A stretch of DNA of 62,976 nucleotides, filler included, from Craspedostauros australis (Eukaryota), in NCBI GenBank assembly GCA_030167865.1. It is 14 parts of 14 records of this genome, joined end to end, with 100 filler letters (N's around TTAATTAATTAA, not from the genome) between each part and the next. Parts side by side here need not be neighbours in the genome. Positions count along the whole stretch, not along the records: positions 35,868 to 40,872 come from JALAGF010004966.1; 13 more parts are not named here. One strand, 5' to 3'. Positions 7,076-52,742 of this stretch are shown one piece after another. Under the pieces are notes generated by a model. It did no database searches and was not told the origin of the DNA. It was given only the letters and a program-made list of their open reading frames with translations. Made by a program: the position numbers and the translations under genes. The first letter of the stretch is position 1. Every line of letters starts with the position of its first letter.

Positions 7076-7180
7076 TCAGCNNNNNNNNNNNNNNNNNNNN
7101 NNNNNNNNNNNNNNNNNNNNNNNNTTAATTAATTAANNNNNNNNNNNNNNNNNNNNNNNNNNNNNNNNNNNNNNNNNNNN

Positions 7181-9700: not shown

Positions 9701-9985
9701 TCCTGGTGGTGTCTCACTTTTCCCACTCTGTTTGGCTGTGCGAATGCTCTTCGTCACACCAGTCTCCTCTTGTTTGATCGCCTCGGGAATCCTCTTCTCC
9801 TTACGATGTAGTCTTGCAGACCGTTCCTCTTTGGTCTCGTCGATCGCGCTTGCGTCTGCGCCTGATAGGACAGTAGCCGCGGCTGCTTCCTTCTCTTCTC
9901 GAGGTGGAGTCTCACTCGCACCTTCTTCTCTCTTGATAGTCAGATTGGACAGAGGGATGTCTTTCAATTCCTCTTCCTCGCTCAT
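9701..9985 (-). mobile_element. Gag N-terminus of a second family-A copia copy
   Basis: MSEEEELKDIPLSN.., near-identical to 6791-7075. Confidence 0.93.
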
Positions 9986-10067
9986 TCAGCCTGCTGCTCT
10001 TGAATGATGTTGGTCTTCCTCGCACGATACGATTAGCGGGCTCGCCCTGATCTATCGTTTATAAACG

Positions 10068-10742
10068 TGTTGGCAAGTTCCGCTCACGGTAACCTACGAN
10101 NNNNNNNNNNNNNNTTGGTTGATAGTCGTCTGTTTGCTATTTCATTACGTTGGCACTCCGATACTCTCGGTGTCCGTTTGTTCTCTTGCCCGATGCTCTG
10201 GGCGCTTCAATCTGTTTCGTAGATTCGGTCTCCGACTATGAGTCGGTATGCGAGATCCTCTCTCGCTCTTCTCTGTATTCTCTCTCTCTCTCAACATCGT
10301 GCGCTCATGCTGCACGACACTCCGTGTTCGATGCGTACTCCGCATTCGACACTCCGTTCATTCAGTACTGGTTTCTACTCCATGAGTACTTACCATTTGA
10401 AGTTCACCTTCAGTATCCATGATGCTGATGCCCTCTTCAGTCATCGGATCTTTGCCTCCTGCTCTGACTTGGAGACAGCTGTTGACGTGGTGACATGATG
10501 ACATCCTGTCGACGTCAGTGGGCGTCCTTCTGCTCTCCAGATGTCACGTTCCATTGGTGATGCAGTAGTCTGTCAGATGATATTGTCATCTGAGGTTTAG
10601 TTGGGAAGTACCTCGAGATTCTCTTGGTACCATTGATGCGTGGACGGATGATCTTCTGATTCTCTCAGAAATCGTTATTTGCAAATTTCCTCCAGAAATC
10701 TTGCCCCTTTTCGTGTGTTCCATTTCCCCTGTAATTCTGACA
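10068..10742 (-). mobile_element. 5' LTR of family-A copia (TGTCAG...CCAACA)
   Basis: TG..CA ends about 80 bp upstream of gag. The homologous copy at 25495-25951 ends at the same GGAACTTGCCAACA. Confidence 0.85.
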
Positions 10743-13420: not shown

Positions 13421-15695
13421 GCAGCGGAAAGGGGAAGATGTTGCAACTTTATCGTGAGAAATAAGACGAGAGAAAACGAGAATCCGNNNNNNNNNNNNNN
13501 NNNNNNNNNNNNNNNNNNNNNNNNNNNNNNNNCATTGTATTGGTGGGTGGGTATGTCGGAAGCGTTGAAATCAAGGTATGGAGTTCATCCAACGGAGAGG
13601 ATCGTGCAAAGGATGAATGCAGTAATGTTTGCAATTGTGCTACCCACGCAACAACATCGTATACCACTATTGAAAAATTCAGTAGATTGATTTGGGAGAA
13701 AATCGGGGAACCAGAAATTGGACACAAAGGACCCAAGACAAACAAGGAGTTGGCACGGCACAACTCCAGGTTGTGGCTCTCACACTCCTGTTCAAGCCAG
13801 AGTGGGTATGATGGTGCTGTCGTACACTGTCTAGTGTATGAGCACACCTGTCTTTCAATGATAAGAATCTAATCAGTGGATTGCTAGAGTAGGCACAAAG
13901 GGGCACCTGCAGAATTGCCACAGAATGCTACGAGGAAACCATCGCCGCCGACACCAAGCGGCATGCCGAATGGAATAAGATTCTTGAATGATCGATCCCA
14001 AATGCTCTGCTCCAAGTACAACGCAATCTCCATGATGCTGGTAACATTGTCTGGTACAAATGGACTGACTCCAAGGCAAAAGTGCTGCCTTCTGCCCATG
14101 GGCTAATCAGTGACTTGCGCCATTCCCTTTCACAGTTGCGTGTAGCAATTTGTGGCTGCACGTACCGGCGTTTGCTCCACCCATCTGCACCATGTCCTGC
14201 GATGGCACCAATACGGCGACTATGGTTCGTCGCCAAGTGTGTCGATACGGTATCCTTGGGATGATCACAGCTCGCTCCATCCATCCATTCGTCNNNNNNN
14301 NNNNNNNNNNNNNNNNNNNNNNNNNNNNNNNNNNNNNNNNNNNNNNNNNNNNNNNNNNNNNNNNNNNNNNNNNNNNNNNNNNNNNNNTCTGGAGTGTGCG
14401 CGATTTGTCGCTCGGCTTGTGAATCAGGATGCGCAGTTCTCTTGCAAATGGACACCAGTTCTCGGCGCAGAGCAGTGGCTCACATTTTGCTCGCACGCGG
14501 ACACAAGTCAATCGCGGCGAGAGGACGAGTACACGCCATCAATTCGAAAATGTTTGTGCTTGCGAGGAAATCGGAACAAGCTCTCAGCCTCATCCACACT
14601 ACCTCNNNNNNNNNNNNNNNNNNNNNNNNNNNNNNNNNNNNNNNNNNNNTTAATTAATTAANNNNNNNNNNNNNNNNNNNNNNNNNNNNNNNNNNNNNNN
14701 NNNNNTGAGGCGGATGTTCCTGTCGATCACCTCTGTTGAGCATCGATGCTCTGGAAGTCACGAGCCAAGACGGCGGCACTCATGCCTATGGATAGAATGC
14801 GCATGGTGTTGTGTGTTGGTGGTCCGTGTGGCAGGAACAGTGGAGGCGGCACAGTATCACTCTGCTTGTTGATTGCTGAACGTGTCAACTCATCCCAATA
14901 CGCAATGTGGTGTTGGTTTGATGTTGAGGACTCTTGTTGCCTGTGCGGATGGTGATTGTTGCAATGCGGTGGGATGGCAACCAGCCAAATCCAAATGAGA
15001 TGGGTTGCAACCAACGAAGGCAATCACATTGGTGGCTTCATCGGCGGCTTCATGGTTGTTCGAGGCATTGGCTCACACCTCAAGTTGATGCTTGCGATGG
15101 CAGGCGGACGAGGGTCAGTGGTCTTGCAGATGCCACGATGACGCAAGCAAGCGTGGGCCATGGTGCACATGGTGGTGGCGGCGGTGGTGGCGACGATGAC
15201 AGCTCTCTCTGTTTCCGAAGACTTTGACGTTGTTTGCTTCGGATTGGTGTTGCGTTGATTGTGGCCAAACGAGAACTCTGTTGTGGTGCTTCTTTCTTGT
15301 TGTTGGTCGCACGCATTTTCGTGATGGATGGGAACAGAAAGATCCAATCCGCGCGAACCAGACGCGTTTGATCAAGAGGAGACAAACACAGGCAAACAGA
15401 AGGAGGAGACCATGCGAACAAGACAACAACACACACACACCACTCAACACCATACTCAACCGCGTGAACAACAGACATCGAATTGCCACTCATATTCATC
15501 ACACAGCGTATGGTACTCATACTCATACTCATACTAATACTAATACAAGCTGTTGCATACACAAACATCGATATCTCTCCCACAGGCAGCTCCGACCACA
15601 GACATCCTCGACAGCCAATCCAACGTAAATCGTCCAACGTCCAACGTCCAACGTCTATCGTCCAGCAACCATCGACCATCCACCACACTATCAAA

Positions 15696-17496
15696 ATGCC
15701 GAGTGTTACGAACACACAACTCATTGATGCTTCCTTCAGAGGTGACTTGGCAGTGTTGAAGAAGTGGAAGAAGCAGAACAAGACACATCATGAAGGAGAT
15801 GGTGTCAACTGCAAAGACATCCACGATTTCACTCCCCTTCAATGGGCATGCTACAACGGCCAGCTGGAGTGTGTCAAGTACCTCATCAAATCATGTGAGG
15901 CGGACATCAACAGCAAAAACAACGATGGTTCCACTCCCCTTCATCACGCATGCTACAACGGCCACCTGGAGTGTGCCAAGTACCTCATCGAATCATGTGA
16001 GGCGGACATCAACTGCAAAGACAACAATGGTGACACTCCCCTTCATCTGGCATGCTACAACGGCCACCTGGAGTGTGCCAAGTACCTCATCGAATCATGT
16101 GAGGCGGACATCAACTGCAAAAACAACGATGGTGACACTCCCCTTCATCTGGCATGCTCCAAAGGCCACCTGGAGTGTGTTGCGTACCTCGTTGCATCAG
16201 CCAATGCCGATACCGACATTCAAAACAAAGACAACAAAACGCCCCTCGATATGATCGATGCAACACTTCAAATCAAGATAAACCGTCTCACACATCTGAG
16301 TCGCTGCAACCCACAACTGCAGCAGCAGTTGAAAGAGAATGAGCAGGAGAATGAACAACTGAAACAGCAGTTGAAATGGAAGGAGGAAGAGAAGACACAG
16401 AAGGAGGAAGAGAATGAACAACTGAAACAGCAGTTGGAACGAGAGGAGGAAGAGAAGAAGCAGAAGGAGCAAGAGAATGAACAACTGAAACGGCAGTTGG
16501 AACGGAAGGAGCAAGAGAATGAACAACTGAAACAGCAGTTGGGACGAGAGGAGGAAGAGAAGACACAGAAGGAGCAGGAGAACGAACAACTGAAACAGCA
16601 GTTGGAACAACAGTTGGAACAGCAGAAGGAAGAAATGCAACACATGCTCTCGAAAAGTCAACAGGAGAAAGAACAGCTGAAACAGCAGCTGAAACAACAT
16701 CTCAAGATCAGCATCGACCAAGATCGTCTCGTCGCTATTCGTGCTGAGGCCATCGCAGACATTACCTTCCTGTGTGGACAAGGGGACGAACAACAAGCAA
16801 TCAAGGCAAACTCCGGAGTCCTCAGGGTCACTGTCCCATCCATTCAGACACTGATCAACAAAGGAATCCAACATCAGCACGCGAATGATGACACCGAAGA
16901 CGGCGCGGTCCCCATCGAAACAACTATCCCTCTCCCCAACCTTCAACCAAAACACGTCCGATATGTCCTCCAATGCATCTACTCAGGCGAGATATCCTTC
17001 AATGACAGCGCTCATAATGACAACGCTGCTGCTCACGTCAGCGCTCACATCGGCGCTCACTCCAACTCACACCACGATACAAATGCCTCTCACCAGCCAA
17101 CTCCCACCCTCAATGGACAGGACGATCTGCAACAGCTCATCCTTGTGGCCAACGAGTTCGGCTTCTGGCGACTCAAGCTTGCTCTTGAAGCAGAGTTGGC
17201 CCGCAAGCATCTCACAGAGGACACCATGATAGATGTGTTGATATTCGCCGATCAACACAACTGCGTGGTGTTGAAGGATACCGCAATGAGGATGGCAGCT
17301 GAAAATGAGAACAAATTGTTCACTCATCCAGATTCTAAGCAGCTATTTCATCACCCTCACCTAATGGGAGTCATTCATGACCTCTGCCATGGTAGAATGG
17401 AGAGTGACGGACTTGATGATGAGTACAGTGGCATGTCCATGATGGAGCTGTACAAGGTCATAGATGAGGACAAGGGTACAGAACAAGTGGATTCAT
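15696..17496 (+). CDS. Ankyrin (4 repeats) / coiled-coil / BTB-POZ(+BACK-like) protein, 3' truncated
   Basis: TPLHxACYNGHLEC repeats, ENEQLKQQL heptads, ADITFLCG..YVLQCIYSG..LVANEFGFWRLKLALE. Start chosen by homology with the 28230 paralogue. Confidence 0.9.
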
Positions 17497-27411: not shown

Positions 27412-28229
27412 TTGTGATTGCTGAAATGAACACAAGTGAAATTTATAGATAATGGGGGCTATGGAAGTAACATACTTAGCACAATGCAGATTTGTGCTGA
27501 TATTCATAGCATGCCCTTTTGGAAACATGGAACTTGACTTCATGGTAGGGTTGGTTGCCGAGCATGTTGGTCAAAGCACTGATCAACTCTGTGGGTGTCA
27601 TCAAAGACATGCCAGCACATGCGCAAAAATACACACACCCAGAATGTACGGAGGCGCCTATGACCTTTTGGGCCAATGGCAACATGCAACGACCATTTCG
27701 AACCAGTTGTGTGCCACGGTCAATGATCTCTCGCATTCGTTGTGCTTCAACAGATGTCCAAACAGACGTTGATCTTCTTCGATGGTTTTACTCATAGCAG
27801 TCGAAGATTCTCGTTTTCAGCGATGTCACGCAACAGAACTCTGTTGTCCCTCCTTCTTTCTTCTTGTTGTCCACGTACATTTTCGCAATGGATGGGAACC
27901 GGTGGATGCGAACCAGAACCAGGGGTGCGATCAAGAGAAGGACCCAAATCAGAATCAGGGGTGCGATCAAGAGAAGGAGGCAAACACAAAGAGAAGACCA
28001 AGACAACAAGACAACAAGACAACAAGACAACAACACACACCACTCAACCCCATACTCGAGCACATCAACAACAGACATCGAGTTACCACACAGTGTATGA
28101 TACCCATACGAATACAAGCTTTTGAAGACACCACCATCGATATCTCCGCCATAGGTAACTCGAACTACACTCTTCCTCGACAGCCAATCCAACGTCAATC
28201 GTCCAGTAATCACCGACCATCCCCTCAAA

Positions 28230-30652
28230 ATGCCGAATGTTACGAACGAACAACTCTTTGCTGCTGTCATGGCAGGCGACTTGTCGGTGTTGCAGGAATG
28301 GAAGACGCAGAACCAGACGCAGAATGAAGGAGTTGATGTCAACAAGGTCACAGACAGGAGTGGTTACACCCCCCTCCATGTGGCATGCATAAACGGCCAG
28401 CTGGAATGTGCGAAGTACCTCATCGAATCATGCAGGGCCGACACCAACTGCAAAGACAAAGATGGTTTCACTCCCCTCCATGTGGCATGCATAAACGGCC
28501 AGCTGGAATGTGCGAAGTACCTCATCGAATCATGCAGGGCCGACACCAACTGCAAAGACAAAGATGGTTTCACTCCCCTTCATGTGGCATGCATAAACGA
28601 CCAGCTGGAGTGTGTCAAGTACCTCATCGAATCACACGGGGCTGACATCAACTGCAAAAACAGCAATGGTTTCACTCCCCTTCATGTGGCATGCAGTAAC
28701 GGCCAGCTGGAATGTGTGAAGTACCTCATCGAATCACGCGGGGCTGACATCAACTGCAAAAGCAACGATGGTGAAACTCCCCTTCATCGGGCATGCCACA
28801 ACGGTCAGCTGGAGTGTGTGAAGTACCTCATCGAATCATGCAGGGCCAACACCAACTGCAAAGACAACAAAGGTCTCACTCCCCTCCATGTGGCATGCAT
28901 ATACGGCCAGCTGGAATGTGCGAAGTACCTCATCGAATCATGCAGGGCCGACACCAACTGCAAAGACAAAGATGGTTTCACTCCCCTTCATGTGGCATGC
29001 ATAAACGACCAGCTGGAGTGTGTCAAGTACCTCATCGAATCACACGGGGCTGACATCAACTGCAAAGACAACAATGGTGGCACTCCCCTTCATGTGGCAT
29101 GCAGTAACGGCCAGCTGGAATGTGTGAAGTACCTCATCGAATCACGCAGGGCCAACATCAACTGCAAAGACAACAATGGTGAAACTCCCCTTCATGGGGC
29201 ATGCTACAACGGCGAGCTGGAGTGTGTGAAGTACCTCATCGAATCATGCAGGGCCAACGCCAACTGCAAAGACAATGGCGGTGGCACTCCCCTTAATGAC
29301 GCATGCCAAACCGGCCACCTGGAATGTGTGAAGTACCTCATCGAATCACGCAGGGCCAACATCAACTGCAAAGACAACAATGGTCTCACTCCCCTTCATC
29401 TGGCATGCATGTACGGCCAGCTGGGGTGCATCAAGTACCTCATCGCATCAGCCAATGCCGATATCGACATCCAAAACAAAGACAACAAAACCCCTCTCGA
29501 TGTGATCAGCACAAACGATCAAATCAAGGTGATGAGATCGATCATCACTGGTCTCAGTCTCCGCAACCTGCAACTGCGGCAGCAGTTGAAAGAGAACAAG
29601 CAGGAAGGCCAGCAACTGAAGCTGGAGTTGGGACAGCAGAAGGAAGAAATGCAGCGCATGCTCTCAAAAAGTCAACGAGAGAGCAAACAACTGAAACTGC
29701 AGTTGGAACGGGAGGGGCAAGAGAAGGACCAGGAGAACGAACAACTGAAGTGGCAGTTGAAACAGCAGAAGGAAGCAATGCAGGGCATGCTCTTGAAGAG
29801 TCAACGAGAGAACGAACAACTGAAATGGCAGTTGGAACGGGAGGGGCAAGAGAAGAACAAGAAGGGCCAGGAGAATGAACAACGAAAACGGCAGTTGAAA
29901 CAACAGAAGGAAGAAATGCAGGACATGCTCTCAAAAAGTCGATGGGAGAACGCACAACTGAAGCGGGAGTTGGGACAGCAGACGGAAGAAATTCGGCGTT
30001 TGCTCTTGAAAAGTCAACGAGAGAGCGGACAACTGAAACGGAAGTTGGAATGGGAGGGGCAAGAGAAGAACAAGAAGAACCAGGAGAACAAGCGACTGAA
30101 ACAGCAGTTGAAACAGCAGTCAAAACAACAGCCAAAACAGCAGAAGGAAGCAATGCAGGGCATGGTCTCGACAACTCGACGGGAGAACGAACAGCTGAAA
30201 CAGCAGTTGGAACGGAAGGGGCAAGAGAAGAAACAAAAGGACCAGGAGAACGAACAACTGAAGCGGCAGTTGAAACAGCAGAAGGAAGCAATGCAGGGCA
30301 TGGTCTCGAAAACTCAACGAGAGAGCGAACAACTGAAACGGCAGCTGAAACAACACTTCAAGATCAGCATCGACCAAGATCGTCGCACCGCTGTTCGTGC
30401 CGAGGCCATCGCAGACACTACCTTCCTGTGCGGACAAGGGGACGACCAACAATCAATCAAGGCAAACTCCGCAGTCCTCATTGTCACTGTTCCATCCATT
30501 CAGACATTGATCAACTCTGGAATCCAACATCAATGCGCTCACGATGGTGCTCAAGATGGAACTGAACCCATCCAAACAACCATCCCTCTTCCCAACCTTC
30601 AACCAAAACACGTCCGACACGTCCTCCAATGCATCTACACAGGTGAGATGTC
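28230..30652 (+). CDS. Ankyrin (11 repeats) / coiled-coil / BTB-POZ protein, 3' truncated
   Basis: Eleven 34-aa/102-bp repeats (28362-29483), long Q/E/K coiled coil, BTB start ADTTFLCG..HVLQCIYTG; paralogue of the 15696 gene. Confidence 0.92.
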
Positions 30653-30752
30653 NNNNNNNNNNNNNNNNNNNNNNNNNNNNNNNNNNNNNNNNNNNNTTAA
30701 TTAATTAANNNNNNNNNNNNNNNNNNNNNNNNNNNNNNNNNNNNNNNNNNNN

Positions 30753-35701: not shown

Positions 35702-35927
35702 GCTGTGAAATTGTCACGAAGACCATTCCTGCTCATTCTTCAAAGTAGACCCTCCAAAAACACAGACNNNNNNNNNNNNNNNNNNNNNNNNNNNNNNNNN
35801 NNNNNNNNNNNTTAATTAATTAANNNNNNNNNNNNNNNNNNNNNNNNNNNNNNNNNNNNNNNNNNNNGTTGCGCTGTTCGCCTCACCATTGCGCAACCAC
35901 AACCATCAAGTCCGGACATCACTATCC

Positions 35928-37505
35928 ATGACCTCACCGTCTCTCATTCCGCCCAAGTCGACCTCTGATGATGCATCCCCGTCAATCATCACCCATCAGG
36001 ATCTCCTACGCGCCGCAGAACAAGGAGACATGGATACCCTCACTGCGTGGAAGACAGCATTCCCACAAACCTCCATCGACACGATCAAGGATGACCGCGA
36101 CAAGACTGCACTCCACTTCGCATGCTCCAACGGCCAACTTGAAACGATCAAACAGTTGATGGAATCATGCGGAGCAAACGTCAATGCCAAATCCATGGAT
36201 GGAGAGACTGCGCTACACTATGCATGCGCACAGGGCAACCTTGATGTCGTGGAATACCTGGCCGGATCGCATGCCGCAGATGTCAACCTCCAGGATAACT
36301 CCGGCAAGGTGGCACTCCACGACGCTTGTACCGAGGGTCATGTGGCCATCGTGAAGACTCTGATCGAGTCACATTCTGCAAGCGCTCTCGTGCAAGATGA
36401 GAAGGGTGAGAATGCCCTCCATGCTGCGTGTCTTCATGGACACTTGGATGTTGTGGAGTACTTCGTTGGATCATGTGGAGTGGAAATCAATGTGCAAGAT
36501 GAATCTGGCAATACTGCGATCCACAATGCGTGTCTGAAGGGTCATCTTCACATTTTGAAGTATGTGATGGAGGCTCGTACTGTGGCCATCGACGTCCAGA
36601 ACAATGACGGCGATACCGCACTCCATATTGCTTGTAGAAACGGTCATTTGGATGTTGTGAAATGGTTGGTGGAGTCAGGTCAGGTGGACATCAATGCCAA
36701 AGACGAGAATGGCGACAGTAGCCTTCACTGCGCAAGTGCTGGAGGTCATCTGGATTTGGTGAAGTATTTGTTGGAATCAGGCGAAGCCAACGTGAATGCT
36801 GAGAATCATGAGCGCGAGACTCCAGTCTACAAGGCATATTGCCACAGCCACTTCGATGTTGTCGAGCATCTCATCGGAACACCAAGCATACATCCCAACT
36901 CCCAACACGAGGATGGCAACACCGTGCTCCATCTCGCAAGTGGCGGTGGCCATCTCGATGTTGTGAAGTGGCTGGTTGAATCCGGCAAAGCCAATATCAA
37001 CGCGAAGAACGACAAGCACGAGACTCCACTCTACAAGGCATATCGCAACAGCCACTTCGAGGTTGTCAAGTATCTGGTCGCAGCACCTACTGTCGATTTG
37101 AACGTCAAAGGCAAGGATGGTCGATCGATACTCCATCGCGCAAGCGCTGATGGTCATCTCGACGTTGTGAAGTCGTTGGTTGAACAAGGCAAGGTAGATG
37201 TCAACATCAAAACCAACAGGTCTGGCAACACTGCACTGCACAGAGCGTGCTTCAATGGTAGATTGGAGGTTGTGAAGTATTTGGTGAAAGTCTGGAACGC
37301 AGAAATCAACATTCAAAACAAGTATGGCAGAACTCCACTTTGGCGGGCAAGTTTCTGTGGCCATTTGGAGGTGGTCAAGTACTTGGTGGAATCGTGCAAC
37401 GCAGACATCAGCATCAAGACCAGCAGTGGCTTGACTGCGCTGAATATTGCGATTAAAAAGGGCCGCACTGATGTTGTCGACTACTTGACCATTCTTGCTT
37501 CATGA
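35928..37505 (+). CDS. Ankyrin repeat protein (~14 divergent repeats)
   Basis: Repeated TALHxAC..GHLDVVKYLVE. Confidence 0.92.
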   Translation: MTSPSLIPPKSTSDDASPSIITHQDLLRAAEQGDMDTLTAWKTAFPQTSIDTIKDDRDKTALHFACSNGQLETIKQLMESCGANVNAKSMDGETALHYACAQGNLDVVEYLAGSHAADVNLQDNSGKVALHDACTEGHVAIVKTLIESHSASALVQDEKGENALHAACLHGHLDVVEYFVGSCGVEINVQDESGNTAIHNACLKGHLHILKYVMEARTVAIDVQNNDGDTALHIACRNGHLDVVKWLVESGQVDINAKDENGDSSLHCASAGGHLDLVKYLLESGEANVNAENHERETPVYKAYCHSHFDVVEHLIGTPSIHPNSQHEDGNTVLHLASGGGHLDVVKWLVESGKANINAKNDKHETPLYKAYRNSHFEVVKYLVAAPTVDLNVKGKDGRSILHRASADGHLDVVKSLVEQGKVDVNIKTNRSGNTALHRACFNGRLEVVKYLVKVWNAEINIQNKYGRTPLWRASFCGHLEVVKYLVESCNADISIKTSSGLTALNIAIKKGRTDVVDYLTILAS

Positions 37506-37933
37506 GAGCATAGCTATAAATTGGACAAAAACCAACCAACCACCTGTCAATGGAATCTCCATGAGTAGCTGTCAAATGCTTAACATCCATCGTTGACATA
37601 AATCAGTCGTTACTGGACTATTTTTCAGTGGACAACAATTACTTCACTATGAGAGGATTGTACGCTGTTCTGTGCTGAACGCCGCTTCGTGTTGCAAGGT
37701 CATGGTACCTCTGTCCAGCCCATACGCCGTAATGTATTGCGACGTGTTGCGATATGTTGTGGCAGGTATATGTATGGCATGCGATTGCACTTTGCATCTC
37801 TTGGAGGAAAGCGGTACATGGTCTGAGATTCACGATACATCTCAGACATACCATCGGAGTCGTGATCCATGTGTTGATGCGGCGCACTGTGGTTGCGCCT
37901 GATTATCATGTGAAATATCATACATTGACGTGC

Positions 37934-39583
37934 CTATTTCTGCACACCCATCTCCTCATCGGTGTCAGCCTCGGAGCTCTCGTTCTCCTCCTGGTTCAGC
38001 TTGTTCATGGCAGCAGTCTCCATGCGAAGGGCAGACTCGAAGACGGGGGCATTCTCCTCGTTGCTGCAGGCGTTGATCTCCTCGCGAAGTCCCTTGATGT
38101 TAGACAGGATGCGCTCGCGACGGACGGAGTAAGACTCGTTCTGTGTGGCCAAAGCCTTCTGGAGCTCGAGGTACTCGCGTGGGACGGCGGTAGAACCGGC
38201 CTCACCGACAAGCACGTTGGTTCCCAAATGCATGTTGCGGTTGCTCTGGTGGTATGGCTTCATGCCGGCGGCTCGCTCCTCTGGGGTGCCGATGTACACC
38301 TCATCGAGCTGGAAGCCAGAGACGGCCTTGTGAATGGAGGCAAGAACCCAGGCACCGGAGCAGATACCGGTGGCTTCCAACAACAGACAGAACTGGAGGA
38401 AGATGTAGACGATTGGGTTGGAGAGGAAGGCGATGGGGAAGACGGATGCGACCAGCTGCCATGTGATGGAGGCGATGATGGTGGTGATGAGGGCTCCGAG
38501 AAGTCCGGTGTTGAAGAATTCCTGGGTGCTGTCAGAGACTCCGAAGATGTTCTCGCCTTCGCCCACCTCGACATCGAGGGTGGTGACATGGGCGATGATG
38601 AAGAAGCACATGGTCACGCAGATCTGACGTCCGATCATGAATCCTGGAAGGTTGCGTCCGTCACCGCGGAAGAGGAGCTCGCAGGTCTTGCGGGCCATTG
38701 GATGGTCTCCACGCTCCTCCTTTGGAAGCTTGGCGACGGCGAAGAAGGCGATCTGCATACCCTCGAGCATACCAACGATGGACATGAAGAGGAAGAAGAG
38801 GATGACAGCGACTCCGTTTGTCACTCCGGCCCACATGGTGGTCTTTCCATCGAAGAGGGCGACCAGGGTGACGGCCATGGCGTAGCACAGGATGGCGAGG
38901 GAGATGAGGATGCGGCTCCAGTAGAAGAGGTTCTGGGCACCGTCGCGTGGTGGTTCCTTCGACTCGATTTCCTTGCCGGAGGCTCAGACGAAGAACATCT
39001 GGACGAGGTAGCACGAATGCAGAAGTCCAGAGAACTCGATGGCGAGGGCGACGTAGAGGGTGAAGACGGCGAAGAAGTTGTTGATGTAGTCAAGCATGCA
39101 CAGGGAGACGTTGACTTGGGAGTTGAACAGTCCGGCTTGAGCAGTCATGAGGATCATGGCGGCTCCGGATCCGAGGAAGATCTGGATGATGATGTCTGGG
39201 AGTCCGAAGACTTCGGCGTCAGCGAGCGGGGCACCGCACTGGTTGATGGTGAAGACCATGAGGAGGACCATGAACTGACGTCCCATGAGGTAGTGATCGA
39301 GGTTGTCACCCTTGTGGGCGAGGGAGGTGCACTTGTGGCTGGTTGGGTGGGATTCGACGTAGAGGTCGCGGTCGACTGGTGGGAGACCGACGAGGGAACC
39401 CTGTCCTCCCTCCACCATGTTGAGCCAGACAAGGGCGGCGATCATGATGACGACGGCGACCACTGGGTGGACCTCGGACGAGACCTTGGTCTGCTCATTG
39501 AAGACGAGTCCGCAGACGATGGTGATCGAGAAGATGAGGAGTCCAGTGGAGTACACCGACTTGATGAGCTGAATGGGATCCAT
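37934..39583 (-). pseudogene. SIT: Silicon transporter with a single in-frame TGA (38984-38986)
   Basis: All four GXQ motifs (EGGQ, GRQ, EGMQ, GRQ), multiple TM helices, C-terminal coiled coil. Both ORF halves share a frame: ..QMFFV*ASGKEIES.. Confidence 0.93.
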
Positions 39584-39780
39584 CTTGGTTGTTGTTGTGT
39601 TGATACTCTGGTTGTTGCTGTGATTGAGCGTTGCAGAGATTGCGAGATTTGAGATTGTGAGTGATGTACAGTCGGGTTCGATGAATGCCGTGAAGGCATG
39701 TGTGGTTGAATGTGGTCGTACGTGGTCGTATGCAGTTGCACATAACGCATTGGTTTCGAAAATAACGGATGTGACACAAT

Positions 39781-40137
39781 TGTCGCGACATGGGTTATAA
39801 GCGTTAATTTCTTGTGTTCATGCAGGACGTGGACTGGCTCCGTGGTTCGATTCCGCAGCGCGCTATTTTAACATGGTAGCGTGGCCTAAGGTTCGATTCC
39901 GTCGGCTGGTACCCACCCCTGCTACAAAAACACACAGAAACACCCGAAACTTGCCGACTGCCTACAGCGGCAGTATAAAGATAGAGTGTGGGGGGTCCTC
40001 ATGATAGGGGGGCTCAAGGGCATGAATCCAAGAATTAGGGAGGGTGTCGCGANATGGGTTATAAGCGTTAATTTCTTGTGTTCATGCAGGGCGTGGACTG
40101 GCTCCGTGGTTCGATTCCGCAGCGCGCTATTTTAACA
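39781..40137 (+). mobile_element. Complete TRIM (miniature LTR retroelement), 357 bp
   Basis: 93-bp LTRs 39781-39873 and 40045-40137 (TG..CA, 1 mismatch plus 1 N), PBS TGGTAGCGTGG at 39874, PPT AGGGAGGG 40037-40044, TSD CACAAT on both sides. Confidence 0.93.
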
Positions 40138-40478
40138 CACAATCACGTGGAGACGTGCACACATTGAGGACAAAGCGATTTGTGAGTGTGGTTTTGACAT
40201 CGAGCCAGAGAGTACACTGCTCAACGCTCTGCGAGTACAAGATGATGATTGTAGAGTGGTCGATTGTGTATTGTATTCTTTGTTGTATTCTGTTCTATTG
40301 TATTCTATGTTCTATGGTGTATGGGGTGCTGTATGGTTGCTGTATTGGTGTTGGTGCTCGGTCGTGATGAGATTCACTTCCTTGCGTGAAAAATTGTGTG
40401 TGTGTGGAGATGTGCGAGAATGTGCACGAGGATGCGCGAGGATTCACAACAAGCCTCGTGGTGCTGCAGCGCATTTGT

Positions 40479-40872
40479 TTATGCCATGACGCTGTCATCC
40501 GAAGACTGAAGACGAGCCATGAAGAGGTCAGTCATGCGGTTGCCGCCCTGGAGCTTCGCAGACTTCACGATGCTTGACACATCCTTGTCCCAGATCTCCT
40601 CGTATGACTTGATCAGTCCGGACACTGGGCAGCGCTTCATGACGACGGTTCCGCTCAGGAAGCACTTGGGCGAGAATGGACCGCGGAATGTCAAGTCCTC
40701 CTCGAAGCGGAAGGTCACGGCGTGCTTGGTCACCGAAAGGGTGTCCTCGATGAGTCGCGACTCGCATTCAGCTGCGTCAAAGAGCATGCGGCAGCCGCGG
40801 ACCCATTGCTCGCGGTAGTACTTGCCATCGAGGTCGGATCCGTCCTTGAAGGTGGCCTGCTCATCGTAGATG
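40479..40872 (-). CDS. C-terminal part of a probable NTF2/SnoaL-fold protein; 5' truncated
   Basis: IYDEQATFKD..LSGTVVMKRCPVSGLIKSYEEIWD; strong codon bias. Confidence 0.7.
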
Positions 40873-41245
40873 NNNNNNNNNNNNNNNNNNNNNNNNNNNN
40901 NNNNNNNNNNNNNNNNTTAATTAATTAANNNNNNNNNNNNNNNNNNNNNNNNNNNNNNNNNNNNNNNNNNNNCGCTGACGCCAACAACCATCACACCGAC
41001 TGCACAAGCGCAACAACAGGAACAACATCCGTTGCTGTTGCGACCTCTGCCGTCATCGGGCAACAAACCACTTCCGACGTCGTCGGTATCGGCCACGCAT
41101 CGACCAGGGTTACCACTCATTGTTGCAATCATCATCATTGGACATGCGAAGGAGCGATTATGCACTACTATCACGGGACGCTTCACAAGCCACATATCCC
41201 CCATCGCATCACGCACCACACGTCCCTTTACGATTGACTTGCACG

Positions 41246-45183: not shown

Positions 45184-46324
45184 TATGCATCCGTCGATTG
45201 TGTTGGAAACGCGGCTCGATGCTGATGATGGTCTGCACAAGCAGTTCGTGGAGCACATCCAGAATGTGGCCCGTTCCGATCTTGCGCACGTCGTCACGAA
45301 ATCAATACGGTGGGAATCACTGCCGTGGCGCATCTGGTGTCCTGGGAGGCACATGGAATGGCAGTACCAATCATTGATCGATGCTAACGGCAGTGGCGAT
45401 GGCGATGGCGACGGCAATGCCAATGGCGATGATAAGGATACTGATAAGGATACTGACAAGGATACTGACATCCATTCCGAAGCATCGATGGGAAGCCTGT
45501 TTCTGCTTCGTGTGAAGGAGTGTGTCACGGCAGGGCTGACCATTGGGTTCGTCCTTCCCACCACCACATCACCACCTCCACTACCATCGTCATCGTCGTC
45601 ACTATCATCATCACTTCCTGCTCCAATCAACTCGCAATCAGATCAACAGCACGGCCAAGAGCAACAGCTCGTCCCCATCCAACAACTCCAGACCATACAG
45701 CTACCTCATCATCGGCACACGTCACTCCGCAAGGACGTCAAGTCATGCAACGAAGACAAGAACAGAACCATCCATTGCGTTTCGACGCTGGAGTTGATTC
45801 CCACAGCATTGCGTGCACGGACGCCAACATCAGCAGGGATGAGGAATGTCCTGCATTCACCCAAACATCGAAATCATCCGTCAACAGACACAATGGACGC
45901 AACTTCAAACACGAACGCAGCAGGCACAGGCACAGGCACAACGGGTGCAATGAGTACGATGAGTACGATGGGAATGGATTCAGAAAGTACCAACAGCACC
46001 AACAGTATCAACAGTGTCAACAGTACCTCCGCCATGGAGCGTGGTTCATCTCGCACATCCACCAAAGATACCAAAGACAACAATGATGCCAACGAGGAAT
46101 ATCGCAAAAGGGGTGCACAGAAGCAGCTTCAGCAGCAGGGCAAGCTGTGGTCGATTGCGAAGAGTCGGTTCGGCATGTCTCAACAGGATGGGAGCGAGAT
46201 GCATCGGTACCTGCAGAGTCGCCTTTCCGCAATCGCTCATGACAACTGGGTGGGCCAATGCACGCATGGTCACTCGTGCAAGACTTCCAGCCGTCTTGTT
46301 TTGGAGTCGATGATGAAGGAATGA
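45184..46324 (+). CDS. 3' part of the GT-A-like gene that begins at 50410
   Basis: 45184-45885 is identical to 52041-52742; frame continues to a stop at 46324. Confidence 0.85.
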
Positions 46325-46637
46325 AGGAATGACGAAGTGAAAGGAAGAAGCCGAGAGAGTAAAGCTCTCTGACTCTGACTCTCTCTCCACGATACGCACT
46401 CGTATGGCATAACACACACGCGATAAATTGCCATGCTCTTTTCCAATGCGCAAGCAAGCAGTTTTGCAGGTACGGGTGGAGCATCAATGTTTACGTACGT
46501 ACGAGCTGTATGATTATTATTATACAATAGACTACCAATGTGTGTGATACTCTACTCTGCTGCACTATGGAATATTATGCCTGTTGCACAACACTAGTCG
46601 TATGGTGTGCCCGCATGCATCATTCCCACGATGCATC

Positions 46638-48809
46638 TCACAAGAACAGGATCATCGAAGCTGGCAGCAGCAGCAGCTGCGCCAGACAACCCGCGATCAA
46701 TGCCATCGCTGGTTTCGTTGATGCGTCGGATGCTGGAGTTGGCATGGATGTTGGAACGGACGTTGGCAGGCTGACGGGCAAATCAGTGTGCGATGACGAT
46801 GGCGCGATGCTCGGAGTACTGCTTGGCTCAGAAGACGGTGATTGCGATGGCAGTTCCACCACAAGATCTGCAAGGTCGAAGTTTTCCGGGAGCACCAGTC
46901 CCTCGATGATGTGAACGATCCCATTGGAGGCAAGGAAGTTGGTCTCCAACACCTTGACTCCGTTGACGGTGAGCTCGGTTGACGATCTTTCAAGATTGAA
47001 GACTCTCCCATTCTGCGCGGCCAACCATGTCACGCCGAAATCGATCTGGTTGATCGAGGCGACCTCAAGAGACATGTGCCCGTCAATGATGTCAAAAATA
47101 AGATCGGGTCGGTCCAACAGCTTTGCGTAAGCTGCTGGATCCTGCTGTTCCAACTTTTGAAAGGCTTCATCCGTGGGCGCCATGAGGGTGACGTCGGTCT
47201 CTCCGACAAGCTTGCTCTTCAGCTGTGGGCTGCGTTGGATCATCATGGCGAGGGTTCTCAAAGAGTCGTTCGTGCTGACCACGTCGACAATGGACATCCC
47301 GAACCATAATGGGACATGCGCGGCGTCGATGGTATGGACGACGCCTAGATTGAACGAGGTGATATCTGCCTTGACAATTGTGGCTATGCCGTTGATGGTA
47401 ATGCTGGGATCACCGGAGGACGTGGCTTCGCCACCAGGCTCGGTGACGGAGATGAGCAGCGGGTTGGCATCGAGGGTGCGTAGCTGATCCCCGTCATTCA
47501 TGGATTCGGTCGTCACGATTTGACCGGTGACAATGTAACGTAGCGCGAAGTCTTCGGCGTGAGCAGCAAATCCCGGCGGTATGCGCTTTTCGCGAAAGAG
47601 AGATGCGAGATCGGAGATGGCGCTGTTTCTTGGGGCGAAGACCGTGACATTCGGTTCCAGCTTGAGAGCGTTGAGAGCAATGGGTGCGTAGGCTACAATC
47701 GTGTGAAAATTGGCGAGGTCGTCATCGAGCACAAGGCGCTCCAACGCTGTCGTCGGAAGAATCGGCGATGTGACGAAATGAAAGTAACCGTTTGAAGCGA
47801 CCAAAGAGATTCCAAGAAAACTCCCCCCTCCAACAATAACAGCATTTTCAGTCTCACGTAGAGTAAGGCGAGTGAACGTGAGCTCCTGACCAAGCAAGGT
47901 GATGGGGACCGCATTCTCATTCTCATTCTCGGTAATAAGAAGCCTGTCGAAGGGATCATTGACGATGTGCTGCAGCAGCAAGTTCCTGCGAAGGACGGGG
48001 TCCTCGAAATGGCGAACGTAGAGTGGATTCAAGAGGGCTCTATTCATTTCGGGGTTGGTGACAAGGAAGGCCGTGTAACCAGCGTTGGTGTCAATCAGGT
48101 CGAGCAGACCCTCCTCCTGGAGCATGTCACGGAAGTTGGTGGAGGAGACGTCATCCGATACACTCTGCGCAAGATTTCGTCGCATCCATCTACTGGTGAT
48201 GACCGAGTCAATGATGTGGACGATCCCGTTGGTCGCAGGGATAGATCGGATGACGTTGGCGGTGCCGTCGAACGTGGAAATGGTGAAGTCACCAGACGGA
48301 GATCCGGTGAGCCTCCAAAAAGGGAATTCATTCCGTCTGAGGAGCTCCACAAAGACAGCGTCAATGAAGGTGTCCGGATCGAGGAGGATGTGGCTTTCGA
48401 CGAAAAGACGAGACTGTTCACGCCACCTTCCTCCGTCAAACTGGTTGAGAAGGGCCTGGTTGAAGTTCCCCATTGCCTCGTTGCTGGGGAGCAGCATCGT
48501 GAAGAACCTTCGTGCAAATCTGATGTTCTTGTTGTCAACGATGAGATCGACAACTTCGACAAACCTGGACAGTTCCGGCTCCGATGTCATGATCTCCGCA
48601 ACCGTCAAGGTGGGCGAGGCTGCCCTGCGCGAAGCGACTGCGGACGAGCGCCCATGGTCCGTGCCAATGGTCTGATCAGCTTCAACTTGAATGCCGACGC
48701 CGGTGTCGATCACACCAACTCCAACGTCGTGCAACTCGCCAATGCAGACGCACTCGTGTGCAAAGGCAACAGCCACGACGGCCACCAGAGGCTTCCACGT
48801 TGCCCTCAT
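46638..48809 (-). CDS. Fasciclin (4x FAS1) surface protein with signal peptide and probable GPI tail
   Basis: TVFAPRNSA/TLMAPTDEAF (H1) and ATNGIVHIID/ASNGIVHIIE (H2) motifs, P/S stalk, hydrophobic ends. Confidence 0.92.
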   Translation of the reverse strand: MRATWKPLVAVVAVAFAHECVCIGELHDVGVGVIDTGVGIQVEADQTIGTDHGRSSAVASRRAASPTLTVAEIMTSEPELSRFVEVVDLIVDNKNIRFARRFFTMLLPSNEAMGNFNQALLNQFDGGRWREQSRLFVESHILLDPDTFIDAVFVELLRRNEFPFWRLTGSPSGDFTISTFDGTANVIRSIPATNGIVHIIDSVITSRWMRRNLAQSVSDDVSSTNFRDMLQEEGLLDLIDTNAGYTAFLVTNPEMNRALLNPLYVRHFEDPVLRRNLLLQHIVNDPFDRLLITENENENAVPITLLGQELTFTRLTLRETENAVIVGGGSFLGISLVASNGYFHFVTSPILPTTALERLVLDDDLANFHTIVAYAPIALNALKLEPNVTVFAPRNSAISDLASLFREKRIPPGFAAHAEDFALRYIVTGQIVTTESMNDGDQLRTLDANPLLISVTEPGGEATSSGDPSITINGIATIVKADITSFNLGVVHTIDAAHVPLWFGMSIVDVVSTNDSLRTLAMMIQRSPQLKSKLVGETDVTLMAPTDEAFQKLEQQDPAAYAKLLDRPDLIFDIIDGHMSLEVASINQIDFGVTWLAAQNGRVFNLERSSTELTVNGVKVLETNFLASNGIVHIIEGLVLPENFDLADLVVELPSQSPSSEPSSTPSIAPSSSHTDLPVSLPTSVPTSMPTPASDASTKPAMALIAGCLAQLLLLPASMILFL

Positions 48810-50409
48810 CTTCCTGTTCTACTAGCATGTACGTGACTTCCACAGTCAAAGCAGCTGCAGTTGCTCTTCAGTCTCTTCCGTCTCCTCTGTCTCCGCCACG
48901 TTTCGTCTTGCCCTCTCCGTCCACTGTCTGCGCTGCTCGTACTGCGTACATGCAATAGATCGTATTTGTGGCATGTCACAACTACCATCGTAATTGGGGC
49001 TCGCCATCACTCGAAGCTCTCGCCCTTGTGGCCGATCAATGCGGGTGTCGCCAAGGAACCATTTGCGCCACCATCAAGCGGTTCTCCACACATAACACAC
49101 AACCTGCACTACCGACCACCATAACCAACGCATCCTACAAGAATGGATAGTTCGTGACTCAGTGTGCTTCCAAGTCACATGAGTCGAACGTTTGACAAAT
49201 TTATGCCTGAGGGATGGACAGACGGAAAATAGTGTGTCCATGTTAGTAGTCCACGACTGAACGCATGACATAGTATGTCCCAATCACGCATTCAAAATAT
49301 GACATTTCATTTGGCCTACCGAGGCCATTCTAGTTGTACGTATTGTTGGTACAAAAGGGACACCCTTATGAGAGTCCAGACGATCAGAACAGGTCTTTAC
49401 GGATCTATGGACATGCTGGTACCACACACTATTCCTGTGGTGCTTGAAGGTGAATCTAATTTCTCCACACGTCGACAGCACATGACTTCGCAGTCTCCCT
49501 CGTGTTGGAATGACCCACTGCAGTTTGCGCATGTGGAGACGTTTGGTAATGTGATTTGCCTCACTTGAGCACTGTGCTATGTCACAATACTACACTGCAC
49601 TGCACTGCACTGCCCTGTACTCTGCAACACAAGACTATCAGGAAGAGTGCATCCGAGATCATTCACCGTCCTTGTTGAGCTCGGTTGGTTGTGCCCTGGC
49701 GCCAGTAACCATCAGAGAGAGTCCTCGTCTTGTCAAGTCGTTGACAGAACAAAGCACCTGTCGCCTCCGAACCTGCGCACGTGGAAATCACACATTTTGT
49801 GATCATTGGTTTGGTTCGCGGACATCGCCGCGCGAACACACATAAAAGGAGGACGAGGCACACTTAGGTCCATCGCAGGGACATTTAACGTCAAATGACA
49901 AAATTGTGCAGGACAATCGGCATGCGGCGCCGCAAGCACGCACTTCTCGCACGTGGAAATCCATGTGAATTATGTGTGCACGATATGTCGATATCATCAC
50001 AACTGAATACTGTACTATTAAATTAAAAACTTGTGGCACTCCCGCCGCTATTTAAAATTGATAACACGAGCCAAATTTTCGGCGTCACACAAACATCATG
50101 ACGGACGCCATCGGCCAACATCACCAAAAGCAATCTCTGCCATCTCCTCGGCGGTCGAGACCAGCCAAAGACTGCTGAGGATACGAACGACCGACTATAC
50201 TTCTCATGGTACTCCATCCGGTCGAACCTTGTCGTTTGCTTCTTCATCATCATCAGCGGCGGCGGTAGCGACAGCAGCGAAGAAGACGAGGACAATCACA
50301 GAAGAAGAAAGGTGTTCGGAGGACGGATCAACAGCTCTCACACATCCCTGCATAGCCGCAGAACAGGAGACGGCAGTCAGCAACGAACAACGAACAACAA
50401 GCAGAGTCA

Positions 50410-52742
50410 ATGCATCGCAGGTCGCCGGCTTCGTTGCGCAATGGCACGGGGTCACCATCGTCGCCGCCGCTGAGACACGGCGCACGCTCGAATCCACACT
50501 CCCATCTGAGTCCGCAGTACCAATACCAGAGCCTGTCTGGGACATCGCCACCACACATCAAGGACAATGGACAGCCCAAACGGCTCGACTTCGAGACGTC
50601 GGATCCAACTTCGCCTTCGACCGTCTCAACCGCGTCGGCATCTGCACTGGCGCAGGCGTGCCACTACAGCTCATCGTGCTCGTGCGAGTATTCGTGTTCA
50701 TCCTCGGGAACGTCTTCTTCATCTCCGTCATCACCGTCATCATCATCATCATCATCAGCAGCTTCGACCGAAGCATCAACGACAATGAGGTTGCCGTTGA
50801 CACCGAGAGACAAGCCACAAAGCGCGGATCCAAGGAGGAGTGTTGGTGGCAGAGAGATGGATCGACAGAAGCATCGGCATGGTGGCTGGTTGCTGTCCTG
50901 TTTCGGCACCCAAACGAAGCTGGCAAGGCATCAAGGTCATCAAAGTCATCAAGGGCGTCAGCCTCATCGATCACGGAGATACAAATCGTCATCCATCATC
51001 ACTTTCATCGTCGCAGCAACCCTGATCGCCTGGATGGGGAGCGTTTCTTTCGTCTGCGTGTACTTGCAAAGAACTGCATTGCATCCACAAGCCACCTTCG
51101 GCGGTCACAAGCAACTGCAGAAGTCTGAAGGGGCCAGAAGTGCCGAGAGCATCATCTCCAAACCGCACAGCACAGGACAGTCTCACTTGAGATCCAGCTT
51201 CCTTCGCACCCACTATCGACACCCGCTGGAAGACTCCACCGCCATCAATCAAGCTCTCCACGAGGCTTCGGCTTTGAATGTTGCCTCAATCTCGACTCCG
51301 ACAGCTCAGCCTGATTCTGATTATCCAAAGGGAACAGCCAACGCCATCAACACCGTCAACACTGTCAACGCCGCCTCTGCTACACGAGCATCTGCAACAA
51401 CCACAGGATCAATGCCAGCTTCAGCAATGTCAGCCTCACCGACACAGCCGCACAACGGAATCGTCCACATCATCCACACACGCTTCATGCAGAACCAACC
51501 AAACCTACTTGATCTGGGATATGCTCGGCTGGAGTTGCTCCGAGTCTTCTTCCTCAAGACCATGCTCTTGCAGACATCCAACAACTTCCTCCTCGTCATC
51601 CGTACAGATCCCAACCTCCATCCCTCGTTGCGTGACAAGCTGTTGGACTTGATCCAATCCTTCGAACGTCAACAACTTGCTAGTGCAAGTGCAGCACACC
51701 AAGGTGCAGCGCAACAAGATCCAGCACATCGCTCAGCCCCTATAGTGTTGCTCATCGCCAGCAACGACATTCCATCAAGCCAATACTCGAGCATCCTTAC
51801 TCCATTGTCCGGTGATGCTGCCATTTGGCACGGAGACATGGAGCGTGCGCAGAACTATCTTCTCTCCGTCATCAATCCAACTGCTGCAACTGTAACTGCA
51901 ACTGGCTCTCCTGCAACAAATCGGTACATGCATGATACTCCTGATGATCACAACAGCACCAGCAATGGCACCAAGAACAGTGACAGCGAGAACAGTGGCA
52001 ACAACAGTGACAACGCCAACAGTAGTAGTACTGAAACCGGTATGCATCCGTCGATTGTGTTGGAAACGCGGCTCGATGCTGATGATGGTCTGCACAAGCA
52101 GTTCGTGGAGCACATCCAGAATGTGGCCCGTTCCGATCTTGCGCACGTCGTCACGAAATCAATACGGTGGGAATCACTGCCGTGGCGCATCTGGTGTCCT
52201 GGGAGGCACATGGAATGGCAGTACCAATCATTGATCGATGCTAACGGCAGTGGCGATGGCGATGGCGACGGCAATGCCAATGGCGATGATAAGGATACTG
52301 ATAAGGATACTGACAAGGATACTGACATCCATTCCGAAGCATCGATGGGAAGCCTGTTTCTGCTTCGTGTGAAGGAGTGTGTCACGGCAGGGCTGACCAT
52401 TGGGTTCGTCCTTCCCACCACCACATCACCACCTCCACTACCATCGTCATCGTCGTCACTATCATCATCACTTCCTGCTCCAATCAACTCGCAATCAGAT
52501 CAACAGCACGGCCAAGAGCAACAGCTCGTCCCCATCCAACAACTCCAGACCATACAGCTACCTCATCATCGGCACACGTCACTCCGCAAGGACGTCAAGT
52601 CATGCAACGAAGACAAGAACAGAACCATCCATTGCGTTTCGACGCTGGAGTTGATTCCCACAGCATTGCGTGCACGGACGCCAACATCAGCAGGGATGAG
52701 GAATGTCCTGCATTCACCCAAACATCGAAATCATCCGTCAAC
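50410..52742 (+). CDS. Type II membrane GT-A-like protein (putative rhamnosyltransferase-like family), 5' part
   Basis: TM at ~50995-51060; IIHTRFMQ..RLELLRVF..QTSNNF and ETRLDADDGL (DxD) motifs. Confidence 0.8.

Follow-up and report, generated by a model that had tools for sequence, protein, structure and literature searches.

A young TRIM retroelement with tRNA-type B-box motifs in the diatom Craspedostauros australis

The element described here was found in a 62,976-nt stretch of DNA from Craspedostauros australis (GenBank assembly GCA_030167865.1), referred to as the window. The window consists of 14 pieces joined by 100-nt spacers (44 N, TTAATTAATTAA, 44 N) and is not one continuous stretch. 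The element is located on a piece of 5,005 nt at positions 35868-40872, which originates from JALAGF010004966.1. An open reading frame of 639 codons (37733-39649) ends about 130 nt before it. This ORF has homologues and belongs to no Pfam family. No tRNA genes were detected in the window with ARAGORN at default settings. Another piece of the window carried a fragment of a copia-type gag on the minus strand (6209-7075).

The element has a length of 357 nt, and its sequence features are given for the plus strand. A repeat finder identified two LTRs of 93 nt with TG...CA ends, the 5' LTR at 39781-39873 and the 3' LTR at 40045-40137, which enclose 171 nt. Direct reading identified a target-site duplication of 6 nt, CACAAT, at 39775-39780 and again after the 3' LTR at 40138-40143. 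The LTRs differ in two positions, a true mismatch of A at 39827 versus G at 40091 and a C at 39789 versus an N at 40053. The single mismatch that had been given for the 93-nt repeats is thus correct, for 92 comparable positions, because the other difference is an N. The 5' LTR is opened by the palindrome TGTCGCGACA. This palindrome had been assigned to both LTR starts; it is present in the 5' LTR, and the copy in the 3' LTR has an N as its ninth base. A putative TATA-like motif, TTATAAG, is located at 39795-39801, about 34 nt upstream of an A-box-like motif discussed below. Directly after the 5' LTR, the sequence starting at 39874 is TGGTAGCGTGGCC, a TGG-type primer site, and the primer-binding site (PBS) TGGTAGCGTGG(CC) covers 39874-39886. 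The polypurine tract (PPT) AAGAATTAGGGAGGG at 40030-40044 comprises 13 purines among 15 bases. The longest ATG-initiated ORF inside the element encodes 44 amino acids, and neither gag nor pol is present. Short TG...CA terminal repeats, a size below 1 kb, a purine tract, a duplication of 4-6 nt and the lack of coding sequence are among the criteria for TRIMs (terminal-repeat retrotransposons in miniature), and all of these were found. The element is a genuine TRIM that inserted recently. The original prediction of a structurally complete miniature LTR element, with its duplication, TGG-type PBS, PPT and absence of an ORF, was confirmed in each of these parts.

The B-box or T-loop motif GGTTCGATTCC occurs three times in the element, in the 5' LTR (39844-39854), in the internal leader (39890-39900) and in the 3' LTR (40108-40118). 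All three were identified by the repeat finder and by motif counts, and the motif in the 3' LTR was also covered by the T-arm alignment of Rfam. They belong to the 12-mer GGTTCGATTCCG, which is present once per LTR and, in the internal part, once at 17 nt from its start. Allowing up to one mismatch, GGTTCGATTCC was found four times in the whole window versus 0.92 expected occurrences, and none of 100 shuffles reached four. When the internal part was shuffled 2000 times, only 4 shuffles reached the score of its local alignment with the LTR, which rests on the common 12-mer. The T-loop-type motifs are beyond chance. The three perfect B-boxes of the original prediction are exact in sequence and position.

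The last third of the LTR has a layout resembling the 3' end of a tRNA gene. Counted from the T-loop of GGTTCGATTCC, the order is 5 nt, GCGCGCT (7 nt), A, TTTT and AACA, which is the LTR end. At GGTTCGATTCC, four of five possible T-stem pairs are formed. The acceptor-3'-strand-like GCGCGCT plus A is located at 39858-39865, at tRNA-gene spacing after the T-arm, and the T4 run at 39866-39869, repeated at 40130-40133, lies 4 nt before the LTR end. The order and spacing correspond to T-arm, acceptor 3' strand, discriminator and terminator of a tRNA gene. The leader copy has the same spacing, with the T-loop followed by CCGTC, GGCTGGT, A and CC. Upstream of it, positions 39875-39886 match, base for base, the 12 nt that open human tRNA-Leu-AAG-1-1 in its printed sequence (PMC10359600; cf. 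PMC6392044). Based on the Leu-like 5' end and the retained spacing, the leader reads as a tRNA with its middle deleted. A predicted leader hairpin at 39875-39913, which is not significant (z = -0.3), resembles the 'top half' of a tRNA, with an acceptor-5'-like strand, TGGCC, TAAGG, the T-loop and then ...CTGGTACC. A second hairpin connects U5 and PBS. Here, the acceptor-like strand GCGCGCUA pairs with the PBS bases UAGCGUG, both in the folds and in the Rfam alignment.

Searches for a complete tRNA were negative. ARAGORN gave no matches in the element at default settings or with the option -ps. Two candidates obtained at relaxed thresholds were rejected. At ps80, a 'tRNA-Ala' at 39822-39913 was at background frequency, with 48 matches in the window. 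At ps90, a 'tRNA-Lys' in the 3' LTR (40041-40129) was one of four in the window and borrowed 4 nt of the purine tract. No match to the Rfam tRNA family was listed at E values up to 10, and the matches listed were only partial ones to the tmRNA clan, over the T-arm region. One of these was a weak match over the T-arm and the U5/PBS hairpin (16.7 bits, E = 0.03). In the 3' LTR, only a T-arm hairpin of 15 nt was aligned (4.8 bits), and the leader had no Rfam match. A cloverleaf is absent according to the tRNA finders, and the tRNA likeness was detectable no further than the T-arm. Folds were predicted for the LTR with and without the leader, for the leader hairpin and for the RNA as a whole. Their z values ranged from +1.7 to -0.95, and none was significantly better than those of shuffled sequences.

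The use of TGGTAGCG as primer site implies a tRNA ending in ...CGCUACCA, with U72, A73 and A1. The combination of U72 and A73 with A1 is taken here to be the signature of eukaryotic initiator tRNA-Met. By this analogy, the primer site suits initiator tRNA-Met better than tRNA-Leu, and initiator tRNA-Met is the most likely primer. A tRNA-Leu primer is not supported, because a PBS for human tRNA-Leu-AAG would match the site in just its first four contiguous bases. The PBS had been described as resembling the complement of a tRNA-Leu 3' end; the Leu likeness resides instead in the sense 5' end at 39875-39886. The first 8 nt of the PBS, tggtagcg, occur 13 times in the DataS1 file of Helenus elements (PMC10886601), and in the available portion of that file they begin the internal portions of Helenus-5_PGr, Helenus-4_PSt and Helenus-7_PTrit. 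Searches of the literature for this octamer together with Ty1 and PBS gave nothing relevant. Two other roles for sequences around the primer site were rejected. The leader motif is not a complement of the primer's T-arm that would extend the PBS, as the implied T-arm would not pair when aligned by hand. Self-priming of the Tf1 type was discarded, as the PBS pairs with the adjacent U5 end and not with the 5' end of the RNA.

Evidence for mobility came from one independent public sequencing run, X1 (share of sampled words, 0.17). Contigs from X1 tiled positions 39781-40074 with zero or one difference each. This interval runs from the LTR through the primer site, the internal part and the purine tract into the 3' LTR. 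The X1 copy was about 99% identical to the element in the window. One contig that matched from 39781 carried 255 nt of unrelated sequence directly before this position and therefore departed from the window sequence exactly at the 5' LTR start; another spanned the junction of internal part and 3' LTR (40008-40074). Matches of X1 to the flank were limited to 39400-39583, inside the neighbouring ORF, with 15 differences per approximately 100-110 nt (about 87% identity). Based on these differences, X1 is not a sample of this assembly. Overlapping contigs of 57 nt that differed by one letter point to variant copies. Summed word depth in X1 was 113-404 for the element versus 23-49 for the homologue of the neighbouring gene, values that measure neither copy number nor expression in a run whose kind, RNA or DNA, is a guess. 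The different flank to which the element is joined in X1 indicates that it is mobile and exists in several places, with more than a single copy, and the same family occupies another site in X1. The intact B-boxes of the X1 copy are uninformative on selection, given its identity of about 99%. The original prediction had made its case dependent on further copies; a second insertion junction is present in X1, though no further copy of the LTR or the internal part was found within the 62,976-nt window.

The element was not found in scans of other sequence collections. The combined signature of LTR B-box and PBS matched 12 loci in a metagenome collection, none of which was related to the element. 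Nine of the 12 represented a single unrelated sequence family, and in L003 and L011 the signature was located inside long ORFs; L005 was identical in sequence to L003. Matches between these loci and the element in blastn shared at most 18 nt. Viral contigs had no matches to the LTR-B-box/PBS signature or to the PPT/LTR junction, and no matches to the LTR start were obtained in the prokaryote genomes scanned.

Among the closest described systems are the Helenus elements, TRIMs with tRNA-like LTRs (Kojima 2024, Biology 13:119, PMC10886601). According to the available sections of that paper, TRIMp3 comprises Helenus, Ajax and Cassandra, of which only Cassandra has its transcription by Pol III validated. 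Helenus elements measure 311-1263 nt, with PBS, PPT and duplications of 4-5 nt (5 nt in fungal and plant Helenus), and the hosts given there are six animal phyla, Selaginella and, among the fungi, rusts and agarics. The present element shares with them the size below 1 kb, the LTRs, the PBS, the PPT and a short target-site duplication. Judged by eye in part of DataS1, Helenus LTRs consist of a tRNA-like body, a T-run and a short tail ending in CA (PMC10886601). The LTR described here likewise has a box B of the GGTTC type and, after it, a strand resembling an acceptor, a run of T and a short CA-ending tail. The sequence ggttcgattcc occurs 15 times in the whole DataS1 file. Primer sites of the TGGTAGCG type are found in rust-fungus families, and the T-arm-like sequence gggttcaat is located inside the internal parts of Helenus-2_PGr-I, Helenus-3_PSt-I and LTR-1_PTrit-I in the portion of DataS1 consulted (PMC10886601); T-arm-like motifs in internal parts are thus a further likeness to some Helenus elements. 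In contrast, what can be recognised of a tRNA in the present element is limited to the 3' part, and its LTR lacks a box A placed at tRNA spacing. Table 2 of PMC10886601, as far as it was available, gives a tRNA gene prediction for many Helenus LTRs, whereas the present element was not called by tRNA finders. The LTR of 93 nt is shorter than the shortest Helenus LTRs, which measure about 110-120 nt by eye in part of DataS1, and the duplication is 6 nt instead of 4 or 5. With the 3' layout, the box B and the type of primer site in common with the Helenus sequences consulted, but with no tRNA body recognised and no correctly placed box A, the element is Helenus-like and a possible member.

Other classes share some features with the element. 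[quoted passage not shown] No 5S rRNA match was obtained in the element with Rfam at E values up to 10. Ordinary TRIMs ('TRIMp2') agree in size, terminal repeats, PBS, PPT, target-site duplication, absence of an ORF and dependence on a partner, whereas their LTRs are without tRNA-type motifs. Ty1/copia elements primed by the 3' end of initiator tRNA-Met share the TGT...ACA LTR ends and a primer site of the TGGTAGCG type, but their gag and pol are missing from the present element. Similarity to tRNA-derived SINEs (SINE2) exists in the short length, the non-coding sequence and the tRNA-type box B. SINEs are moved by LINE proteins and are without LTRs, PBS and PPT, whereas the present element has all three and no A-rich tail. 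Among copia elements, Copia-39_PHord is cited in the available text of PMC10886601 as an example using initiator tRNA-Met, and diatom CoDi elements are described in PMC2806351, in the available part of which Blackbeard has a 4-nt duplication, TTCC.

The best explanation, held at a probability of roughly 0.6, is a young non-autonomous TRIM that was moved in trans and whose motifs originate in a tRNA gene or in a SINE derived from a tRNA. An autonomous LTR element would supply, in trans, the proteins that package the RNA of the element and reverse-transcribe it. Ty1/copia elements are a likely source of these proteins, and the partner would most likely be of this type. No autonomous partner with the same LTR ends was found. 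The minus strand would be primed at 39874-39884 by a tRNA ending in ...CGCUACCA, most likely initiator tRNA-Met, and the plus strand from the purine tract (40030-40044). The ancestral LTR may have acquired a tRNA gene or tRNA-derived SINE, whose 5' half later decayed or was deleted, and the leader may represent a second, partial tRNA-like copy. The layout of a tRNA-gene 3' end in the last third of the LTR is the same in the fungal Helenus sequences consulted, and on this basis the motifs are read as descendants of a tRNA or SINE. By analogy with Helenus, tRNA-type sequence is the most likely ancestor of the T-loop motifs.

A rival explanation takes the tRNA-type boxes as a working internal Pol III promoter and the element as a true TRIMp3, which appears somewhat unlikely from the arrangement of the motifs. 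The A-box-like motif TGGCTCCGTGG is present at 39835-39845, repeated at 40099-40109, with one mismatch to an 11-nt consensus as assumed here. It starts 55 nt upstream of the leader B-box, with the T4 run at 39866-39869 between the two. A start-to-start distance of 55 nt between box A and box B is acceptable and in the range of tRNA genes with introns or long arms. The A-box-like motif upstream of the internal B-box was thus located as predicted, but its frequency was no higher than chance, with 21 matches of TGGCTCCGTGG quality in the window versus 22.1 expected. Inside the LTR, it overlaps the B-box by 2 nt, with 9 nt from start to start, and neither TRGCY nor an A-like motif was read 30-60 nt upstream of the LTR B-box. 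The promoter might consist of the A-like box of the LTR and the B-box of the leader, or of the LTR B-box alone with the TATA-like motif, and the T4 run in the 3' LTR would act as terminator. The perfect, non-random B-boxes are consistent with such a promoter, as is the agreement of TGGCTCCGTGG with the 'TRGCY...YGG' given in the available text of Kojima 2024 (PMC10886601). The length of 357 nt is within the range of 311-1263 nt that is tied there to Pol III processivity, and a split A/B pair would be complete solely in the context of the 5' LTR. The T4 run 4 nt from the LTR end corresponds to the Helenus LTRs consulted; since these have one, a T-run near the LTR end is by itself no argument against Pol III. 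The T4 run at 39866-39869, however, would make many Pol III enzymes stop some 40 nt past the start, a tRNA-like body was detected neither by ARAGORN nor by Rfam, and the Helenus promoter itself is unvalidated according to its author (PMC10886601, available sections). With an A-box at chance level, overlapping A and B motifs, an intervening T4 run and a likeness restricted to the T-arm, the earlier reading as a tRNA-type promoter is weak. Whether TFIIIC or Pol III is still recruited by the B-boxes is doubtful. In a more specific form, the element would be the first stramenopile TRIM driven by Pol III (TRIMp3), with a promoter split between the box-A-like motif of the LTR and the box B of the leader. 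The promoter would then be complete only at the 5' LTR, and at the 3' LTR the LTR's own box B and the T4 run would provide a terminator and a landing site for TFIIIC. This form is clearly unlikely; if true, it would solve the problem that the same LTR must both start and stop transcription in a way unlike Cassandra or Helenus.

The sense T-arm motifs next to the primer site may instead serve reverse transcription or packaging and not transcription. They could mimic the top half of a tRNA and be recognised by the Gag or reverse transcriptase of the partner or by a tRNA-binding host factor, or they could be a structural U5/PBS element inherited from the leader of the autonomous partner. The two 12-mers arranged symmetrically around the U5/PBS hairpin, the 7-nt T-loop presented in the leader hairpin fold and the presence of T-arm-like motifs in the three fungal Helenus internal parts named above fit such a function. 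The folds are no better than those of shuffles, though, no complementarity between the tRNA-like LTR sequence and the PBS was found in Helenus (PMC10886601), and a motif in sense orientation cannot pair with the primer's own T-arm. A role of this kind is quite improbable. It is also conceivable that the locus is no retroelement at all and that a local tandem duplication of 264 nt or an assembly artefact mimics the order LTR-internal-LTR. The assembly is represented by 14 spacer-joined pieces, the 3' LTR contains an N and the window holds a single copy, which would be compatible with an artefact. A tandem duplication would not put a 6-nt repeat outside both LTRs in the order of a target duplication, and the coincidence of TG..CA ends, of TGG after the 5' LTR and of 13 purines among the 15 bases before the 3' LTR stands against it. 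The X1 run reproduces the order LTR-PBS-internal-PPT-LTR, with the LTR start on a different flank. Together, the X1 junction and the target duplication leave a tandem duplication, or an artefact of the assembly, barely credible.

The preferred reading of a trans-mobilised TRIM with tRNA- or SINE-derived motifs places the element within a known class. The original prediction knew of no such element described in a diatom. The class itself is in print as Helenus or TRIMp3 (PMC10886601), and only the occurrence in a diatom or stramenopile is unreported in the sections consulted. Diatoms, stramenopiles, oomycetes and protists are without mention in the main text of PMC10886601, and none is listed in its Table 1. 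No report of a TRIM in a diatom was found in a limited search of open-access text, and term look-up in PMC2806351, PMC8147415 and 10.1101/2025.10.24.684338, as far as their text was available, gave no mention of TRIMs or tRNA-like LTRs. The window's stretches of tRNA-like 3' ends appeared in no paper of the literature searched. In the stramenopile Ectocarpus, TRIMs and LARDs are reported (review PMC3145265, available sections). What may be new is the occurrence outside the reported groups; the concept is known from fungi, animals and a plant. With the idea already in print, the finding would be incremental.

If the family is abundant in its host, the range of tRNA-flavoured TRIMs of the Helenus/TRIMp3 kind would reach past fungi, animals and Selaginella. 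Perfect B-boxes, to which TFIIIC could potentially bind, would then be scattered beside genes, as in the present copy next to the 639-codon ORF, and the annotation of tRNAs and repeats could be confused. The element represents a small and tractable case of a transposable element for the question whether such motifs are promoters, accessories of the primer site or fossils.

Contigs of X1, an independent public sequencing run in which the element has a different flank, were compared with positions 39400-40500. The element was ~99% identical, whereas the neighbouring coding sequence, a 639-codon ORF (37733-39649) ending ~130 nt before the element, was matched only at ~87% identity. Either the ORF matches derive from a paralogue or a different species, or the element is far more recent than the split between the two sources.

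Helenus elements are TRIMs with tRNA-like LTRs (Kojima 2024, PMC10886601). In part 1 of the 10 parts of their sequence file (DataS1), the T-arm-like motif gggttcaat was present in the internal portions of three fungal elements, Helenus-2_PGr-I, Helenus-3_PSt-I and LTR-1_PTrit-I. The sections of the article text covered here held no comment on T-arm-like motifs in Helenus internal portions. Within this part of the source, the fungal motifs parallel the leader B-box (39890-39900), the T-loop-type motif in the internal part of the 357-nt element.

LTR-retrotransposon remains were present elsewhere in the window. A copia-type gag fragment on the minus strand at 6209-7075 matched Pfam Retrotran_gag_2 (E = 5e-5), a match that did not reach the curated threshold. 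Related repeats were shared across pieces, 6791-7080 with 9701-9990 at 92% identity and 10068-10523 with 25951-25495 at 86%, and LTR-retrotransposon debris is therefore present in several copies. Near 10632-10621, the minus strand reads TGGTACCAAGAG, a possible further primer site.

The window comprised 14 pieces of 1.6-7.8 kb, separated by identical 100-nt spacers (for example 40873-40972, 44 N + TTAATTAATTAA + 44 N). It looks like a pseudomolecule assembled from draft contigs, and pieces on either side of a spacer are not implied to be adjacent in the genome. One piece (45184-52742) carried the same 702 nt at both ends, with 45184-45885 and 52041-52742 being 100% identical, and could be a circular unit, a tandem unit or an assembly overlap. 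A 9-nt unit array at 1425-1658 alternated between CCATGCATA and CCGTGCATA.

Three ORFs rich in ankyrin repeats were located on separate pieces, two with an additional BTB domain (15468-17495 and 28155-30653) and one at 35868-37502. DNA repeats at 70-85% identity are common to these ORFs on different pieces, suggesting that they belong to an expanded gene family.
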